Shown here: positions 3,793-10,765 of the stretch, piece after piece | How positions within the stretch are numbered: the first letter of the stretch is position 1 | How the letters are laid out: each line of letters opens with the position of its first letter | Origin: a virus | Lineage: Duplodnaviria > Heunggongvirae > Uroviricota > Caudoviricetes | Length of the DNA: 30,523 nt | Direction: 5' to 3' (one strand) | IMG/VR virus record: IMGVR_UViG_2737471824_000004 | Location: 1-30,523 of that record | Notes under the pieces: generated by a model | Told to the model about the DNA's origin: nothing | The model's input: the letters and a program-made list of their open reading frames with translations, nothing else | Database searches by the model: none | Position numbers and translations under genes: made by a program

Positions 3793-4127
3793 ATTGATAA
3801 CAGAGGGCGTTGCAGCGGGGTTGTCACTTAAGCGTATGGTCAACCTGACAACCCGGTGTCCTCAACGGGGGAAGGAATAACCCCGCCATACTTACCGCCG
3901 CGCCATTTCGCGGATTGCCACAACCGGAAGCGCACGGTCGACGAAAATTTAACGACAGGCTATCTATGAACCAGCTACCTCGCCGTGCGCTTTCGCGTTA
4001 TGGTCTGACTTTTCAGGGAAATATCCTTTCAGTAAACTGTCAGTGCCGGATGCTCACCCGTGTCCGGCGCACGTACTCCACCTCACCCGTGGAGAACTCC
4101 TTAATCACCAACCCTCAGGAGGGTGAA

Positions 4128-4418
4128 ATGTCGACTGAAAATGATGAAATCATTAACTCCCTGATACGCCAAATTAATAATTTTGATAAAGCATTGCAGC
4201 ATGCTGCGGCGCGTAGTGATATAACTCTTTTAGCAATTTCATTTCTTGCATCTGTTATGGATAAAAATGAAGTCGTACGACAGAGTCTTGTTGATTATAT
4301 CGACTCGCTTCAACCCGGCACTTTCAATCATGAGAGCTTCAATCATGAGAGCTTCAATCATGAGAAAGAGCATGTTAAGTCTGTAATTAATTCTCTTATT
4401 TTGAATCAAAAGAATTAA
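4128..4418 (+). CDS. hypothetical protein (96 aa) with tandem SFNHE repeats; low-GC insert
   Basis: ATG 4128 with strong RBS AGGAGGG 5 nt upstream; low-GC coding sequence; opposite strand to the surrounding leftward operon; 3' end overlaps the convergent gene 4396..4716. Confidence 0.5.
   Translation: MSTENDEIINSLIRQINNFDKALQHAAARSDITLLAISFLASVMDKNEVVRQSLVDYIDSLQPGTFNHESFNHESFNHEKEHVKSVINSLILNQKN
4322..4366 (+). repeat. 15-bp tandem repeat (TTCAATCATGAGAGC x about 3) encoding SFNHE-SFNHE-SFNHE
   Basis: Direct reading of 4321..4370. Confidence 0.8.
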
Positions 4419-5544: not shown

Positions 5545-5832
5545 TTAGTTCTGCTTAGGGAATTGGCGTCTGGCGTGTACTACACTCACGATCTCAATGC
5601 TTAAAGTGGCTACACGGTAAAGAATTATATAGTTAGGGTGAGCTACAATCTCACGCAAGCCAGGTACTCTGTCGCTTGGTGGGTATAAATACGGGTGTTC
5701 GGATAACGGCAGCACACACCCCCTTAATCGCTGCCATAAGCGTTCTGCCGCATCTATGTCGAAACGAGCAATATAACTAGTTATATCATCCAGGTCGGTA
5801 TCTGCGCTTTCAAGCCATAACACGGGTAACAT
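5545..5832 (-). CDS. type II toxin, ParE/RelE superfamily (95 aa)
   Basis: C-terminal signature ...REIVAHPNYIILYRV...VVHARR typical of ParE/RelE toxins; start ATG 3 nt after the upstream antitoxin stop with RBS ACGGAG inside that gene. Confidence 0.7.
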   Translation of the reverse strand: MLPVLWLESADTDLDDITSYIARFDIDAAERLWQRLRGCVLPLSEHPYLYPPSDRVPGLREIVAHPNYIILYRVATLSIEIVSVVHARRQFPKQN

Positions 5833-5835
5833 TTA

Positions 5836-6024
5836 CTACTTACTCCGTTCCTTGCGCATTTTAGCAAAGCGTTCTGCCATTCTGCGCTCAACCTCGTCAT
5901 GGGGAATTGCTGGGCGCGGATTTGCAAGGCTCGCTGCTACTTTCGCACGCAGCCATTCGTTGTAACTGTTTTCTTGTTCAATGGTTTCGAACTCAGAAAC
6001 CATTGGTGAAAGGGCCGTATTCAT
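5836..6024 (-). CDS. type II antitoxin (ParD/StbD-like, 62 aa) paired with the toxin at 5545..5832
   Basis: ATG 6024 with RBS CGGAGG 6 nt upstream; the longer track frame from 6087 would overlap the repressor gene; small acidic protein directly upstream of a ParE-like toxin. Confidence 0.6.
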   Translation of the reverse strand: MNTALSPMVSEFETIEQENSYNEWLRAKVAASLANPRPAIPHDEVERRMAERFAKMRKERSK

Positions 6025-6053
6025 GGCACACCTCCGTCTGTGTATGGTGGTCA

Positions 6054-6461
6054 TTATGCTCGATGCCCTTTCCGGGCAGCGAGCCATCTTTCAATTGTGC
6101 GCTCCATTAACTCTTTTTTGTCTTTCATCTCCTGAAGCATTTGTCCCTGTTCTTCCTCTGGGAATGCTCCAAATGTCTGAAGTAGCTCTCTTTGCTTCGG
6201 ACCTATTTTCATTGTGTCAGGTACCACAATCTGTTCGTCCTCACTTGGTGGCAACATAAACCAATATGGAGGGAATCCTGTTACTTCAGAAAGTTTATCA
6301 AGATTAGCCATTGATGGGCTTGTGATGCCATGAACCCACTTTTGGACCGATTGTTGGGCAACACCTATTCTGCGGGCTAGTTCTGCTTGCTTAAGCCCTG
6401 TTTTTTCCAGCACCAGTTTTATCCGGTACGTGGTTATTTCAAGAGTGGTCATTCGCTTCAT
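6054..6461 (-). CDS. prophage repressor, DicA/RacR-like (135 aa, N-terminal XRE HTH, no S24 peptidase domain)
   Basis: HTH motif LKQAELARRIGVAQQSVQKW; size and C-terminal pattern resemble DicA as recalled; divergent from the Cro-like gene; leaderless start at the predicted pRM. Confidence 0.75.
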   Translation of the reverse strand: MKRMTTLEITTYRIKLVLEKTGLKQAELARRIGVAQQSVQKWVHGITSPSMANLDKLSEVTGFPPYWFMLPPSEDEQIVVPDTMKIGPKQRELLQTFGAFPEEEQGQMLQEMKDKKELMERTIERWLAARKGHRA

Positions 6462-6568
6462 GCATTCATTTTACACAAAAAAAGTGTAGCTAGCATAATC
6501 AGCTTGAAAGTGTTGATAATGTAACTTTTAAAGTGTATAAGTGATGTCGATTGATTGGAGTTAACGAT
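6462..6568. promoter_or_regulatory. divergent immunity promoter/operator region (pR-like rightward, pRM-like leftward)
   Basis: Rightward TTGATA (6513..6518), 17-nt spacer, TATAAG (6536..6541); leftward -10 TAAAAT (minus, 6468..6473) placing the start at the ATG 6461; three AAAGTGT copies at 6481, 6507, 6530 (spacing 26 and 23 bp); palindrome TACAC-A7-GTGTA at 6472..6488. Confidence 0.55.
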
Positions 6569-6847
6569 ATGCATAAATGTTTAAAAAATAAAATTCGCCA
6601 AATAGGGTTATCCCAAGCGGGTATTGCTCGCTTGATTGGGTTGCCACAGCAGGTTGTATGTCGATGGGTTAATGGGCAACAGGTCCCTGCATCAAGGGTT
6701 TTACAACTGTGTGAGATTATGGCGTGGACTGTCACCCCCCACGAGCTCCGACCAGATATTTACCCTAACCCAACCGATGGCCTGCCTTGTGGACGTAAGA
6801 GTACAGCGAATGAATTACTGGCGGTGAACAATGAAAATCACTCCTGA
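6569..6847 (+). CDS. Cro/YdaS-like HTH regulator (92 aa)
   Basis: ATG 6569 with GGAG RBS 8 nt upstream; HTH LSQAGIARLIGLPQQVVCRW and HELRPD motif typical of YdaS/Cro-like proteins. Confidence 0.7.
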   Translation: MHKCLKNKIRQIGLSQAGIARLIGLPQQVVCRWVNGQQVPASRVLQLCEIMAWTVTPHELRPDIYPNPTDGLPCGRKSTANELLAVNNENHS

Positions 6848-7352
6848 ACAGGTTTGCGAGGCTCTGGATGCCTGGGTATGCAAACCAGGAATGACACAGG
6901 AGCAGGCGACGATATTAATCACAGAAGCATTCTGGGATCTGAAAGAGCGCCCGAACATCGATGTTCAGCGTGTCACGCTTGATGATGGCGGGGTTGATCA
7001 GCGTGCGCTTGGCGTTAACCGGGTGAAGATATTCGAACGCTGGAAGGCTATCGACACCAGGGATAAGCGTGAAAAATTCACGGCGCTGATTCCGGCAATT
7101 ATGGAGGCTATCCGGATTAGTGATTTCAGGTTGTACCGCGAAATTACTGATGGAAAAAGCATTACGTACATGATTGCCGGGTTAAACAAAGAATATGTCG
7201 ATGTGGTGGAGTCCGGGCTGCTTTTTGCAGATCCAGCTGTTGTGGAACGTGAGACAGACGAGCTTATAGAAAAAGCAATCGCTTTCAAGCGTGCCTATCG
7301 TCACCAGTACCAACAAAAAGCCGGATGGAATTATGAGCCTTCTTTTTGCTGA
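6831..7352 (+). CDS. YdaT-like protein (173 aa), function uncertain
   Basis: ORF-track ORF overlapping the Cro-like stop; position after the Cro/YdaS-like gene matches the Rac order racR-ydaS-ydaT-ydaU-ydaV; family assignment from memory only. Confidence 0.4.
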   Translation: MKITPEQVCEALDAWVCKPGMTQEQATILITEAFWDLKERPNIDVQRVTLDDGGVDQRALGVNRVKIFERWKAIDTRDKREKFTALIPAIMEAIRISDFRLYREITDGKSITYMIAGLNKEYVDVVESGLLFADPAVVERETDELIEKAIAFKRAYRHQYQQKAGWNYEPSFC

Positions 7353-8310
7353 ACGCCCGCTGGTTATAAACACACAGCTGGCGATGAAGATTGGTTTAAA
7401 CGAAGCAATTGTGTTGCAGCAACTGCATTACTGGTTGAGGGATACCAGTTCTGGCATGGAATGTGATGGCGTTCGCTGGATTTACAACACAACGGAACAA
7501 TGGCTGGAACAGTTTCCGTTCTGGTCAGAGTCAACGTTAAAGCGTGCGTTTGCAAGTCTGAAAACGCTGGGGCTTTTGCGTAGCGAAAAGCTCAATAAAT
7601 CGAAGCGTGACATGACTAATTTTTACACAATTAACTACGATAGCGCGCTTTTAGATGATGGCAAAGTGAACGAATCCATCGGGTCAAAATGCGCCACTCC
7701 ATCAGGTCAAAATGACACGATGGAAGAGGTCAGGATGAAACGTTCCATTGGTTCAAAACGACCCAATGTCATCAGGTCAAAATGGCACGATGATCCTACA
7801 GAGAATACAACAGAGAATACAACAGAGAATACAACAGAGAATAAAAAACTCTCTTGTCCGGACGCTTCGCAACCGGACGAGTTGACGGCTGAACAGGCGT
7901 TTTTAACCCGCCATCCTGATGCTGTTGTGTTCAGCGTGAAAAAACGCCAGTGGGGAACCCGGGAGGATTTGACATGTGCGCAGTGGATCTGGGGGCGGGT
8001 TGTAAACCTGTACGAACAGGCTGCCAGTGACGATGGTGAGATCACGCGACCGAAAGAGCCCAACTGGACGGCGTGGGCCAATGACGTGCGCACAATGCGG
8101 ATGCTGGATGGAAGAAGTCACAGACAAATTTGCGAAATGTTCAGCCGGGCACAACGGGATCCGTTCTGGATAAAAAACATCAAGAGCCCGGAAAAACTCC
8201 GTGAGAAATGGGATGAACTGGTTATTCGACTGTGGCGTGGTCCCGCGCAGCGTTGCGTGAATCATATTTCTGAACCGGATACCGAAATTCCGCCGGGTTT
8301 CAGGGGGTAG
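7333..8310 (+). CDS. phage replication initiation/replisome organiser protein (O/YdaU-like, about 325 aa)
   Basis: ATG 7333 (track M at 7291 is GTG); N-terminal motif NEAIVLQQLHYWL typical of replisome-organiser N domains; iterons inside the gene; followed by a DnaC-like loader. Confidence 0.6.
   Translation: MSLLFAERPLVINTQLAMKIGLNEAIVLQQLHYWLRDTSSGMECDGVRWIYNTTEQWLEQFPFWSESTLKRAFASLKTLGLLRSEKLNKSKRDMTNFYTINYDSALLDDGKVNESIGSKCATPSGQNDTMEEVRMKRSIGSKRPNVIRSKWHDDPTENTTENTTENTTENKKLSCPDASQPDELTAEQAFLTRHPDAVVFSVKKRQWGTREDLTCAQWIWGRVVNLYEQAASDDGEITRPKEPNWTAWANDVRTMRMLDGRSHRQICEMFSRAQRDPFWIKNIKSPEKLREKWDELVIRLWRGPAQRCVNHISEPDTEIPPGFRG
7678..7784. repeat. putative origin iterons: four copies of ATCRGGTCAAAATG-like motif (7678, 7701, 7747, 7771)
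   Basis: Direct repeats at 23, 46 and 24-bp spacing inside the O-like gene, analogous to ori-lambda lying within gene O. Confidence 0.5.
7798..7845 (+). repeat. 12-bp tandem repeat ACAGAGAATACA x 4 (encodes TENTTENTTENTTEN)
   Basis: Direct reading; immediately downstream of the iterons. Confidence 0.8.
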
Positions 8311-8316
8311 CGCATC

Positions 8317-9057
8317 ATGAAAAACATTACGTCAGGTGGTGTTCTGGCAAGAGTCAGCAGATTTGTGCCGCAGGATGCAATCCCTCCGTACCGTACGGTG
8401 GCGGAGTGGCGGGAATGGCAGCTTGCTGAAGGGCGTAAGCGAAGCGAGGAAGTTAATCGTCTGAATCATCAGACGCGGGTTGAAAAAATCATTAACCGCT
8501 CCGGTATCCAGCCGCTTCACCGGAAGTGTACGTTCGGTAACTACCGGGTGCAGAACGATGGTCAGCGCCATGCCCTGAGTCAGGCGAAATCCATTGCGGC
8601 AGAGCTGGAAGGCGGCTGTACGAATTTTGTTTTCAGTGGCAGGCCTGGCACAGGAAAAAACCACCTGGCGGCGGCTATTGGCAACCACCTTCTGGCGAAA
8701 GGTCGCAGTGTGATTGTGATAACAGTGGCGGATGTGATGCTGGCGTTACATGGCAGCTACGACAACAAAAACTCGGGCGAAAAATTTTTGCAGGGATTGT
8801 GTGGCGTTGACCTGCTGGTACTGGATGAAATTGGCATGCAACGGGATACGCGTAATGAGCAGGTCACGCTGAATCAGATTGTTGACCGCAGAACGGCATC
8901 GTTACTCAGTGTGGGGATGCTGACAAATCTTAACCATGCAGCGATGAATACACTTCTCGGCGAGCGGGTGATGGACCGCATGTCCATGAACGGTGGTCGC
9001 TGGGTGACGTTTAACTGGGAGAGCTGGCGTCCGAACGTCAGCCAGCACAGGAACTGA
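8317..9057 (+). CDS. DnaC-like helicase loader / IstB-like ATPase (YdaV-like, 246 aa)
   Basis: Walker A GRPGTGKNHLAAAIG and Walker B DLLVLDEIG; RBS AGGGGG. Confidence 0.8.
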   Translation: MKNITSGGVLARVSRFVPQDAIPPYRTVAEWREWQLAEGRKRSEEVNRLNHQTRVEKIINRSGIQPLHRKCTFGNYRVQNDGQRHALSQAKSIAAELEGGCTNFVFSGRPGTGKNHLAAAIGNHLLAKGRSVIVITVADVMLALHGSYDNKNSGEKFLQGLCGVDLLVLDEIGMQRDTRNEQVTLNQIVDRRTASLLSVGMLTNLNHAAMNTLLGERVMDRMSMNGGRWVTFNWESWRPNVSQHRN

Positions 9058-9086
9058 GAAGTAATTTTTATCCGGAGGAAGTTTTA

Positions 9087-9857
9087 ATGGAAACCGTATT
9101 GCATGCACTGAAAGCAATGGGAAAAGCCACGTCGGTGGAACTGGCTACGCGACTTGATATCAGTCGTGAAGAAGTGCTGAACGAGCTGTGGGAACTCAAA
9201 AGAAATGGCGTCGTTGATAAAACTGGTCACACCTGGTTTCTGGCTGGCGAAGGTGAATCCCGGGTAACCGAAGAGCGGCCAGTAAAATCTGAAGCACAGG
9301 ATATGCTGACCGGGGAGGTCGAACAAAAAGTTACCGCAGACATGATGATTGAGTTTATCGGTCAGGAGGGGGCTAAAACGTGTGAGGAACTGGCGGGTAA
9401 GTTCGGTGTCAGTACTCGCAAAGTTGCTTCCACGCTGGCTGTGGTAACCGCAACGGGGCGGCTGGCACGCGTTAATCAGAACGGTAAATTTCGTTACTGC
9501 ATGCCGGGCGATAAGTTACCAGCAGAGCCGAAATCCGTGCCGGTAACGGAAAATGATGGTAAGGCCTTTCCTCAGCCAGCAGGTGTTGCGTTACCAGTAC
9601 AGGAAGCGGCAACACAGGAAGATATAAAAACAGAAACTGTAGCGGACATTGTGCAATCGTTGCCATCGTTTACTGAAACGCGAGCGGATGACCTGGTTTT
9701 ACCATCGCTGCATATGGCAAACCGCGAATTGCGTCGGGCGAAAAATCATGTTCAGAAGTGGGAGCGTGTCTGCGCCGCGCTGCGGGAGCTGAACAAGCAC
9801 CGGGATATTGTTCGACATATTACGGATTCTTCCCGCCGTGTTGCATCGGAAAAGTGA
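9087..9857 (+). CDS. hypothetical protein with two winged-helix-like segments (256 aa)
   Basis: Strong RBS GGAGGA; ORF-track ORF. Confidence 0.5.
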   Translation: METVLHALKAMGKATSVELATRLDISREEVLNELWELKRNGVVDKTGHTWFLAGEGESRVTEERPVKSEAQDMLTGEVEQKVTADMMIEFIGQEGAKTCEELAGKFGVSTRKVASTLAVVTATGRLARVNQNGKFRYCMPGDKLPAEPKSVPVTENDGKAFPQPAGVALPVQEAATQEDIKTETVADIVQSLPSFTETRADDLVLPSLHMANRELRRAKNHVQKWERVCAALRELNKHRDIVRHITDSSRRVASEK

Positions 9858-9872
9858 TTGCCGGAGGCGCTT

Positions 9873-10295
9873 ATGGCAAAAGTATTTACACAAGAAGAGC
9901 GGGAAAAAATTAAAGGGCAGGTGGTTGAACTCGTGCGCCAGAGCGGTCGTGAGACGTTACGGCAACTGGAAGCCAAGACAGGTGCGACAAGATATCTGAT
10001 GAGCGTTCTCGCCAGAGAGCTGGTTGCCAGTGGCGACGTATATAACTCCGGCTACGGGTTATTCCCGTCAGAACAGGCTCGTAAGGACTGGCAAAATGCC
10101 CGCAAAAAACTATCCAGGGCAAAGGTGAAGAAACCATCTGTGGTTGATCCTGACCTTATCTGGTCATTACCTGACGGAGAAATACGTCGCTACGACAGGA
10201 GTATGAACATAATCTGTCACGAGTGCCGGAAGAGTGAGGTTATGCAGCGAGTGCTGGCGTTTTATCAGGGTAATTATCAGGAGGTGATGCTGTGA
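9873..10295 (+). CDS. hypothetical protein (140 aa)
   Basis: ATG 9873 with GGAGG RBS (track M at 9858 is TTG). Confidence 0.5.
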   Translation: MAKVFTQEEREKIKGQVVELVRQSGRETLRQLEAKTGATRYLMSVLARELVASGDVYNSGYGLFPSEQARKDWQNARKKLSRAKVKKPSVVDPDLIWSLPDGEIRRYDRSMNIICHECRKSEVMQRVLAFYQGNYQEVML

Positions 10296-10765
10296 GTGCA
10301 CCGGCAACCATTCTTGATATGTGCTGCGGCAGCCGCATGTTCTGGTTTGATAAGAATGACGACCGGGCGATATTTAGCGATATCAGAAAGGAAGAGCACA
10401 CATTGTGTGATGGACGACGCCTGATTATCAGTCCTGATCTGATAGCTGATTTTCGTGCACTACCATTTGCAGACGCATCTTTTTCGATGGTTATATTCGA
10501 TCCTCCGCATCTTGAGCGTGTTGGTGATAACGCCTGGATGGGAAAGAAATATGGACGGCTGAATAAAGATACCTGGCGTGATGATTTGCGGCAGGGATTT
10601 AAAGAAGCCTTTCGTGTGTTGCGTCCATACGGCGTTCTGATTTTTAAATGGAATGAAACGCAAATACCTGTTCGCCAGATATTGGTGCTGACCGACAGAA
10701 AACCTGTTATCGGTCAACGAACAGGAAAAAACGATAAAACCCACTGGATTATTTTTATGAAATAG
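10292..10765 (+). CDS. putative small DNA methyltransferase (157 aa; motifs DMCCGS and FDPPH)
   Basis: GTG start after AGGAGGTGA, overlapping the upstream stop (GTGA); FxGxG-like motif I near the N-terminus and a DPPH motif resembling the (D/N)PP(Y/F/W/H) motif of amino-methyltransferases. Confidence 0.4.
   Translation: MSAPATILDMCCGSRMFWFDKNDDRAIFSDIRKEEHTLCDGRRLIISPDLIADFRALPFADASFSMVIFDPPHLERVGDNAWMGKKYGRLNKDTWRDDLRQGFKEAFRVLRPYGVLIFKWNETQIPVRQILVLTDRKPVIGQRTGKNDKTHWIIFMK

Follow-up and report, generated by a model that had tools for sequence, protein, structure and literature searches.

The stretch of DNA analyzed here (IMG/VR record IMGVR_UViG_2737471824_000004, 30,523 nucleotides, referred to below as the window) is a lambdoid prophage, which adjoins ompW in the closest complete genome. 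Its early region contains a replication initiator gene (7333..8310, plus strand), nearly always annotated as "hypothetical protein", which encodes 325 amino acids (aa) from the ATG at 7333 within an open reading frame (ORF) that opens with a GTG at 7291; this ATG is the counterpart of the start assigned by the PGAP pipeline in the 99.2%-identical E. coli record CP027457. Two sets of repeats lie inside the gene: an array of iterons (7654..7792, no strand assigned; gene offset about 322-460) and, downstream of it, a tandem array of 12-mers that runs into an A-tract (7798..7850, plus strand; gene offset 466-518). An earlier note, made from the sequence alone, had read these repeats as a counterpart of the phage lambda origin (ori-lambda); all of its repeat coordinates were correct, and everything lies inside ORF 7291-8310. 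An origin inside the initiator gene of a lambdoid phage is textbook knowledge. Based on the comparisons described below, we consider the segment 7654-7850 to be most probably the origin used for vegetative replication by this lambdoid prophage of E. coli, placed inside the gene of its own initiator.

Iteron array

The motif ATCRGGTCAAAATG occurs in exact copies at 7678, 7701 and 7771, and a copy with three mismatches is present at 7747; the sequences read at these sites are ATCGGGTCAAAATG (7678), ATCAGGTCAAAATG (7701 and 7771) and the diverged ATTGGTTCAAAACG (7747). Exact matches to ATCRGGTCAAAATG number three in the window and none in 100 dinucleotide shuffles. When three mismatches are allowed, ATCRGGTCAAAATG alone is not significantly enriched over the window (7 found, 6.4 expected), so that the iteron signal consists of the exact, clustered and phased copies. 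The earlier note had counted four iteron copies, which stands as three exact and one diverged, but the array really consists of six phased, near-palindromic 23-bp units with the core dyad GGTCA-AAA-TGAC, i.e. 7654-7676 (weak), 7677-7699, 7700-7722, 7723-7745 (degraded here), 7746-7768 and 7770-7792. The units have the form of a near-palindrome, CATC-nn-GTCA-AAA-TGAC-nn-GATG, and 10-16 of the 23 positions in each are self-complementary, compared with 5.4 +/- 2.9 for the other 23-mers of the gene. The copies are read in two frames: that at 7701 encodes P-S-G-Q-N-D, and those at 7678, 7747 and 7771 encode S-I-G-S-K or V-I-R-S-K.

The 46-bp spacing previously reported within the array is as measured, but the gap hides the unit 7723-7745, which is degraded only in the window. 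The core of this unit is GGTCAAAATG in 85 of the 86 close relatives (the remaining one was unmatched) and GGTCAGGATG in the window; an alignment with six relatives showed the extra copy, AGAGGTCAAAATG, within the same gap. Since all but this one of the 86 have the intact core, the double substitution of AA by GG at 7733..7734 (no strand assigned), which spoils the core of this fourth unit (start 7723), is specific to the window. No DnaA boxes were found inside the putative origin, and the sole sites with one mismatch are located at 6511 and 8165.

Tandem 12-mer array

Downstream of the iterons, Tandem Repeats Finder identified ACAGAGAATACA repeated 3.8 times at 7798-7843 with 100% matches, and CAGAGAATA was found four times against 0.18 occurrences expected. 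The four tandem 12-bp copies described earlier thus correspond to a real array of perfect units, but the fourth unit is incomplete (ACAGAGAATAAA) and continues into the A-tract. Together with this tract the array, whose core is CAGAGAnTAC, is a candidate DNA-unwinding/helicase-loading element (7798..7850). Among the close relatives used for copy-number counts (92-98% identical, IMG/VR), three units are present in 78, four in 3 and five in 3.

The segment 7796-7850 has a GC content of 31%, compared with 49% for the window, and its top strand contains 73% purines, 58% A and 11% T. It is the least stable 40-60-bp interval of the gene (z = 2.7-2.8). The single strands of the array are essentially unstructured, yet not more so than shuffles of the same composition, and no Rfam family was matched. 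A GATC directly precedes the first 12-mer, at 7792 in the window and in 17 of 59 homologs, mostly from Enterobacterales; considered as a defining feature of the array (cf. the 13-mers of oriC), it was rejected, as it is not family-wide.

Conservation of the 12-mer motif across the initiator family

Homologs of the initiator were compared in a set of 80 loci from other species, one genome per species, scanned with an alignment of the N-terminal domain (N-domain). The loci derive from Enterobacterales, Pseudomonas, Acinetobacter, Moraxella, Psychrobacter, Bacillaceae, Staphylococcus, Lactobacillaceae, Caedibacter and Chloroflexota bins. With up to one mismatch allowed, CAGAGAnTAC is present in 174 copies on the sense strand of the 220-nt zone that follows the iterons, in 45 copies in the other 388 kb of the sense strand and in 21 on the whole antisense strand. 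At least two copies were found in 60 of the 80 loci, Firmicutes included, and the motif is present in Pantoea, Xenorhabdus, Serratia, Pseudomonas, Staphylococcus, Lactobacillaceae and Thermomicrobiales despite their differing iterons. In several Firmicutes the first spacing is 11 instead of 12, so that the same DNA reads T-R-D-Y and then T-E-T-T; taken over the whole family, the motif occurs in each of the three reading frames.

Codon usage was compared between the repeats and the rest of the same genes. To avoid circularity, the repeats were located by peptide alone (T-E-x-T, aa 125-200), which gave 90 units in 39 loci. Threonine at codon 1 is encoded by ACA in 89 of 90 units, compared with 25% elsewhere (Fisher p = 2e-49), and glutamate at codon 2 by GAG in 89 of 90, compared with 47% elsewhere (Fisher p = 1e-26). 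At codon 3, asparagine is always AAT (35/35; 53% elsewhere) and isoleucine always ATT (34/34; 45% elsewhere), and the middle base of this codon is free, so that the residue may be Asn, Ile, Thr or Ser. The synonymous sites are thus frozen and the replacement site varies, a pattern opposite to that of selection at the protein level, and this indicates selection on the nucleic acid. The earlier note was right that the array encodes a TENT-repeat linker; in the light of the codon evidence for a DNA (or RNA) constraint, this peptide is a by-product.

When IMG/VR was scanned for two tandem units without regard to the encoded protein, at least 120 loci were obtained. Among the 115 with at least 500 nt upstream, an N-domain of the window type was detected upstream in 72 by a local hidden Markov model (HMM). 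Nearly all of the other 43 have a like anatomy with other iterons, e.g. TTCCCGAAATGGGGAAA, CCAACAAGTTGG and GGTCAAAAACGACC, the clear exception being one low-complexity match in a giant virus. The loci missed by the HMM form two further N-terminal clusters and a singleton, have no Pfam domain, and belong to PHROGs 9773, 6493, 270 and 678, to which the window protein also has weaker hits. The strong form of the idea that the array is independent of the N-domain was therefore rejected. As these PHROGs are also weakly matched by the window protein, the carriers of the array can be read as one large winged-helix initiator superfamily. The motif is present in orf292 of Lactobacillus phage mv4 and in ORF015 of Staphylococcus phage 96. 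The experimentally verified rep gene of TP901-1 has its own repeats and an A-rich tract, without CAGAGAnTAC, and in lambda and P22 the motif is not present in the tandem form. The base-by-base conservation of the 12-mer speaks for recognition of its sequence and not just for easy melting.

Co-variation of the iterons with the N-terminal domain

Iterons of the same format recur at the same place in many of the homologs. In most loci, the 11-mer repeated most often within the gene is located at offset 320-460, with a spacing of 22-24 bp or a multiple of it. In 74 genes the density of phased matches is 0.079 per nt at offset 300-480, compared with 0.0033 over the remainder of the genes and 0.0034 across 337 kb of flanking sequence, i.e. 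phased dyad repeats are about 24-fold denser at the shared gene offset than elsewhere. The common format is N3-CA-AWW-TG-N'3 with lineage-specific outer triplets, as exemplified by GGTCAAAATGACC; GGGCAAnTTGCCC or GTGCAAATTGCAC; GGACAAnTTGTCC; GGATCAAAATGATCC; GTATCAAAATGATAC; and TACCCAAAATGGGTA.

The iteron class co-varies with residue 67 of the initiator, located where the predicted recognition helix begins, in the motif W-S-x-X-T-[LIV]-K-R (mutual information 1.53 of 1.89 bits; 1.07 for the next column). For the base directly 5' of the CA core the relation is closer still (1.66 of 1.71 bits) and was reached by none of 20,000 permutations: T is accompanied by Ser or Ala (16/18), G by Asp (16/16) and A by Lys or Arg (8/8). 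Lys or Arg with GGA-CA was found in Pantoea, Mixta, Cellulosilyticum and Staphylococcus simiae, and near-identical Pantoea proteins are split by the rule, SPDT being found with GGGCA and SEKT with GGACA. We regard this co-variation as the strongest in silico evidence that the N-domain reads the iterons. Iterons and 12-mer array also co-occur: both elements are present in 46 homologs and both absent from 11, whereas 7 have just the iterons and 12 just the array (odds ratio 6, p = 0.002).

The 11 loci that have the N-domain and neither element come mostly from Bacillus and Neobacillus, and a similar homolog of Neobacillus has an acidic linker after the N-domain. Homologs of this type may have their origin elsewhere or play a different role. 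The homolog of Shigella flexneri CP182557 is frameshifted (a 30-aa ORF from the start of the match) and keeps five iterons and three 12-mer units. Some of the loci come from mis-binned metagenomic contigs. Contigs labelled Veillonella parvula and contigs of Bacillota and Collinsella bins carry 94-98% identical copies of the E. coli prophage gene, and two 41,200-bp contigs labelled Nocardioides and Micromonospora have the same iterons and array, of the Firmicutes kind; these labels are probably binning or contamination artefacts.

Domains of the initiator protein

The initiator matches PHROG 391, "replication initiation O-like" (E = 8e-91). It gave no Pfam hit at E <= 0.01, and its sole NCBIfam hit is the DnaT-type tail. 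The 3,906 database relatives likewise show no Pfam domain among the matches listed. At least 80% of the gene is present in 1,749 of 5,426 complete E. coli genomes, i.e. about a third.

The N-domain (aa 1-109; 7333..7659, plus strand) was modelled by AlphaFold2 as a winged helix (aa 10-108) with the order H-H-E-E-H-H-E-E and a predicted local distance difference test (pLDDT) score of 65-87. Its predicted recognition helix spans aa 66-78 (nt 7528-7566) and includes the putative specificity residue Ser67 (nt 7531-7533, plus strand), which co-varies with the iteron half-site. It is followed by a predicted disordered linker (aa 110-181, pLDDT about 25; 7660..7875, plus strand) that holds the iterons and the 12-mer array, and this predicted location would explain how the protein tolerates the repeats. 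The C-terminal half was modelled as a helical domain (aa 187-301) and a disordered tail. In a Foldseek search the best matches of the N-domain were the N-domains of staphylococcal plasmid RepA on iteron DNA (5kbj, 4pql; E about 0.01-0.03, target template modelling (TM) score 0.52), and the N-domain of DnaD (2v79) ranked 16th. The profile of 25 diverse N-domains found no sequence relative in the PDB, and neither the window protein nor 10 diverse homologs were hit by the Pfam models RepA_N or DnaD.

Of the description of the protein as O/YdaU-like, given in the earlier note, the O part holds for the C-domain and the YdaU part is wrong. BLASTP aligned aa 149-298 (7777..8226, plus strand; the folded helical part being aa 187-301) with the C-domain of lambda O at 38% identity over 150 aa (E = 6e-25). 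The N-domain is not O-like: there was no hit of PF04492, no BLAST alignment with lambda O and an hhalign probability of 0.05%, and the same N-domain profile gave 0.65% against gp18 of P22. Nor does the protein contain DUF1376, and its match to YdaU of the Rac prophage is limited to the last 19 residues (68% identity, BLASTP).

This C-terminal tail (aa 303-325, ...VNHISEPDTEIPPGFRG; 8239..8307, plus strand) is shared with DnaT and Rac YdaU; in the form ...SEPDxxIPPGFRG it also terminates E. coli DnaT (PDB 6aep, 2ru8, 9zbt). In all three cases (DnaT, YdaU and the initiator), the next gene downstream encodes a DnaC-type loader (dnaT-dnaC, ydaU-ydaV and the pair described here). The last 60 nt of the initiator gene are 96.7% identical to Shiga toxin (Stx) phages POCJ13 and 75/02, in which no nucleotide match to the gene was found outside this segment, which suggests that the tail travels with the loader module. 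The tail is therefore presented here as a candidate contact for the DnaC-type loader, and its presence in both DnaT and YdaU points to a shared way of engaging such loaders; a 2026 paper on the preprimosome leaves the contact partner of the tail unsettled.

Neighboring genes

The DnaC-like helicase loader gene (8317..9057, plus strand; NCBIfam PRK12377, 475 bits; Pfam IstB_IS21 and Bac_DnaA) encodes a protein 75% identical to Rac YdaV. Upstream of the initiator gene, a Cro/YdaS-like gene (6551-6847, plus strand) and a CII/YdaT-like gene (6831-7352, plus strand) belong to the rightward early operon, which is transcribed across the putative origin; a helix-turn-helix (HTH) repressor gene (6054-6461, minus strand) is divergent from it. 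In phage mEp460 and many E. coli prophages of about 87% identity, a DUF977 gene follows the initiator directly; in the window, the DnaC-like gene and a DUF1627 gene (9087-9857) separate the initiator from DUF977 (9858-10295). The loader looks like an optional cassette, and the loader-free relatives presumably use the DnaC protein of the host.

Directly downstream of the HTH repressor gene, and overlapping it, lies a minus-strand pair encoding a ParE toxin (5545-5832; PF05016, 8e-16) and a PaaA2 antitoxin (5836-6087; PF21217, 3e-19). The layout repressor-PaaA2-ParE is similar to that of the three-gene module paaR2-paaA2-parE2. The closest complete genome has a DUF1391 gene in the place of this pair. 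A perfect 15-bp tandem repeat, TTCAATCATGAGAGC x2.9, is located at 4323-4365 in ORF 3915-4418 (plus strand); it is translated there as FNHES-FNHES-FNHEK, and an ORF on the minus strand overlaps it.

Comparison with known replication origins

Among the closest parallels is ori-lambda, together with the origins of 434, 21, phi80 and the Stx phages 933W and P27. Dyad repeats spaced by about 20-24 bp lie at the junction of two domains, an A-rich, strand-skewed tract is found on their promoter-distal side, the operon order is cro - cII-like - initiator - helicase-loading gene, and the initiator's C-terminal domain is homologous to that of lambda O at the 38% identity mentioned above. In gene O of lambda the annotated iterons occupy offset 349-433, with an A-rich tract of the coding strand after them, and in the BLAST alignment the TENT residues fall on those encoded by the A+T-rich region of lambda. 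The number of iterons varies among lambda relatives, from 4 in lambda to 6 in Stx phages (PMC7466680). The parallel with ori-lambda drawn in the earlier note is borne out by the gene offset, the linker position, the homology of the C-domain, the alignment of the array and the location of the least stable stretch, and it gains further support from the recurrence of the anatomy in distant homologs and from the co-variation of the iteron with a residue of the recognition helix. On the other hand, the iteron sequence of the window is unrelated to that of lambda and the N-domain has no detectable homology to that of O; the partner is DnaC/IstB-like and not lambda P, many relatives having a DUF977 gene at this place; a 12-mer that is sharply periodic and conserved across phyla takes the place of the A+T-rich tract; and the protein, unlike lambda O, carries a DnaT/YdaU-type C-terminal tail.

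In phage P22, the annotated rep_origin is found at the same offset (352-496) of gene 18, with three dyad iterons spaced by about 23 bp (CGGTAAAA...TTTACCG) and a tandem A-rich ACAAAAGACAATAT x2 after them on the coding strand, whereas the partner is a DnaB-type helicase (gene 12) and the tandem unit is 14 bp long and of another sequence. The RepA_N plasmid initiators (RepA of pSK41 and pTZ2162; 4pql, 5kbj) and DnaD (2v79) are winged-helix replication proteins, one of which was solved on iteron DNA, and are the best fold matches of the predicted N-domain, but with target TM scores of 0.45-0.52 and 14-16% identity this suggests a shared fold class and does not show family membership. RepA_N plasmids carry origin repeats inside the rep gene. 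In oriC and in iteron plasmids such as RK2 (oriV), short tandem A+T-rich 13-mers adjoin the initiator binding sites, and they offer a model of how the 12-mer array may act. These 13-mers are unrelated in sequence to the 12-mer and intergenic rather than coding; the complement of the array agrees with the middle 13-mer of oriC at 10 of 13 positions, which serves as a lead only.

The Rac genes ydaS-ydaT-ydaU-ydaV of E. coli K-12 share with the window the operon layout, the loader and the tail ...PDxxIPPGFRG, although YdaU is a DUF1376 protein and aligns only over the segment mentioned above. Direct repeats are also present in the middle of ydaU, i.e. four AAGCAGATGTTCAA-like copies with spacings of 33, 33 and 12 bp, but these are of another sequence and no CAGAGAnTAC array was among the repeats found. 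The ydaU repeats could be the origin of Rac (oriJ).

An intragenic iteron origin is of a known kind; this one is set apart by a different DNA-binding domain, a DnaC-type partner and a conserved periodic 12-mer instead of a generic A+T-rich tract. No prior description of the origin of this module was found by a literature search that excludes most papers in subscription journals, including older reviews on phage replication, and a search with the motif sequence returned unrelated primers only. The "Eru" classification of Stx phages does not cover the initiator module, and the iterons of the B83 paper, considered as a parallel, were rejected, as they belong to a partition site.

Proposed mechanism of initiation

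Dyad iterons, their location inside an initiator gene, an A+T-rich, skewed tract downstream of them and a specificity matched to the N-domain are all traits of a replication origin that were found in silico at this locus. From them we infer a series of events, i.e. binding, wrapping, unwinding at the array and helicase recruitment, which would give the segment its origin activity. Dimers of the initiator N-domain would bind five or six 23-bp dyad iterons, with the helix beginning at residue 66 reading the half-site and Ser67 specifying the T of GGT-CA. As 23 bp correspond to about 2.2 helical turns, successive sites would be rotated with respect to each other, and wrapping of the DNA into an O-some-like complex is to be expected. 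The stress that this creates would be relieved by opening of the CAGAGAnTAC array and the A-tract (7798-7850). Next, DnaB would be recruited through the lambda-O-type C-domain and the DnaT/YdaU-type tail by way of the DnaC-like loader (8317-9057), which would place the helicase on the opened array. Rightward early transcription crosses the site.

Several observations weigh against this interpretation. The degraded fourth iteron perhaps means that the origin of the prophage copy in the window is weakened. A GC content of 31% is modest for an unwinding element, and the array is only the second least stable site in the early operon 6551-10300. The AlphaFold2 model has a low overall confidence (mean pLDDT 58.7, based on a 19-sequence alignment), and the fold matches are all weak (E about 0.01) and derive from an N-domain model with the pLDDT of 65-87. 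By the thresholds set, 11 of 76 homologs lack both iterons and array, and 19 of 76 have just one of the two. One of the two seed peptides used for collecting the homologs, QNDTMEE, is itself encoded by an iteron, and the set therefore favors the GGTCAAAATGAC class. The comparative statistics, including the permutation test, ignore phylogenetic non-independence, therefore it is the convergent cases across phyla that carry the argument on residue 67. Finally, the searchable literature contained no experimental evidence for any member of the N-domain family.

Alternative explanations for the repeats

The repeats might act at the protein level only, as a flexible SIGSK/TENT linker that arose by slippage and has no function as DNA. 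The region does encode a predicted disordered linker, and the array changes its copy number by whole 12-bp (4-codon) units. Nevertheless, this explanation is hardly credible: two reading frames are used by the iteron copies and three by the 12-mer, the frozen positions of the codons are the synonymous ones and the free one is non-synonymous, the iterons co-vary with a DNA-reading residue elsewhere in the protein, and palindromic units are meaningless for a peptide. It is also improbable, in our opinion, that the iterons bind the initiator for autoregulation, copy-number control or exclusion of related phages and that replication starts elsewhere. Plasmid iterons do act in control as well, less stable sites exist elsewhere, the search of the window for other origin-like sites was not exhaustive, and plasmid-borne fragments of ori-lambda inhibit related phages, according to PMC3349717. 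However, the full lambda/P22 order is present, i.e. iterons, an A-rich skewed tract, a helicase-recruiting domain and a loader gene, iterons and array co-occur across the homologs (p = 0.002), and control functions would be compatible with the role of an origin.

Other explanations concern the 12-mer array itself. It is quite unlikely that the array is kept as a module junction for recombination, which shuffles N-domain and iteron modules with different C-domains, even though the nucleotide similarity to Klebsiella phages spans the N-domain and the iterons and ends inside the array (query 100-543, i.e. window 7390-7833), the C-domain of these phages is unrelated beyond the array, and one array joins at least three types of C-domain. 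Recombination among phages of Escherichia, Staphylococcus and Thermomicrobiales cannot maintain a common sequence, 30-50 bp is short for efficient homologous exchange, and the tandem, strand-skewed form with a period of one turn points to a structural or binding role; shuffling is perhaps a consequence and not the cause. The array could also act as RNA, a purine-rich early transcript forming an R-loop on the pyrimidine-rich template and thereby opening the origin, which we consider unlikely. In every carrier it is the coding (non-template) strand that is rich in purines, as the motif is always inside an ORF in sense orientation, and the early operon transcribes through the array. Against this, no Rfam family was matched and no structure was predicted, and the purine skew leaves the base-by-base conservation unexplained. 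Ori-lambda requires transcription ("transcriptional activation"), of which such an R-loop would be a concrete form.

The proposal that the array is a site read in a sequence-specific manner, as single- or double-stranded DNA, by a conserved partner refines the reading of 7654-7850 as an origin and does not exclude it; we put it forward tentatively. The candidate readers are a surface of the initiator superfamily, the host DnaB, the loader or the primase (cf. the 13-mers of oriC and RK2 oriV). Nine of the ten positions of the motif hardly vary between Enterobacterales and Staphylococcus, Lactobacillaceae or a Thermomicrobiales bin, while the iterons change, and the DNA-only scan found the array downstream of N-domains of at least three sub-families, which differ in their iterons and C-domains. 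A+T richness alone would not freeze synonymous sites, and the copies are 11-12 bp apart, i.e. about one helical turn. On the other hand, the N-domains of all carriers are remote homologs, so that the constant reader could be a phage or a host protein, and lambda and P22 manage with looser A-rich repeats and TP901-1 rep without the motif.

Significance

The placement of an origin in a lambdoid initiator gene was a routine and probably correct prediction, and its identification fills an annotation gap for a very common E. coli prophage module. The deeply conserved 12-mer is the interesting part. A 10-nt motif that lies in coding sequence, is read in three frames with frozen synonymous sites, and extends from phages of E. 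coli to those of Staphylococcus is unusual. It is possible, although we would not yet count on it, that the CAGAGAnTAC array is an unrecognized sequence-specific origin element of a large, Pfam-less superfamily of winged-helix phage initiators in Gram-negative and Gram-positive hosts, i.e. the site of duplex opening and helicase loading, read strand-specifically by the initiator or by a universal host replication protein. The motif offers a handle on how iteron-type initiators open DNA and pass it to the helicase. If the suggestion is true, the motif together with the residue-67 code would make phage origins and their specificities readable directly from sequence. The residue-67 rule provides a testable prediction for re-targeting an initiator, and it suggests how related prophages residing in the same host could keep their origins separate.

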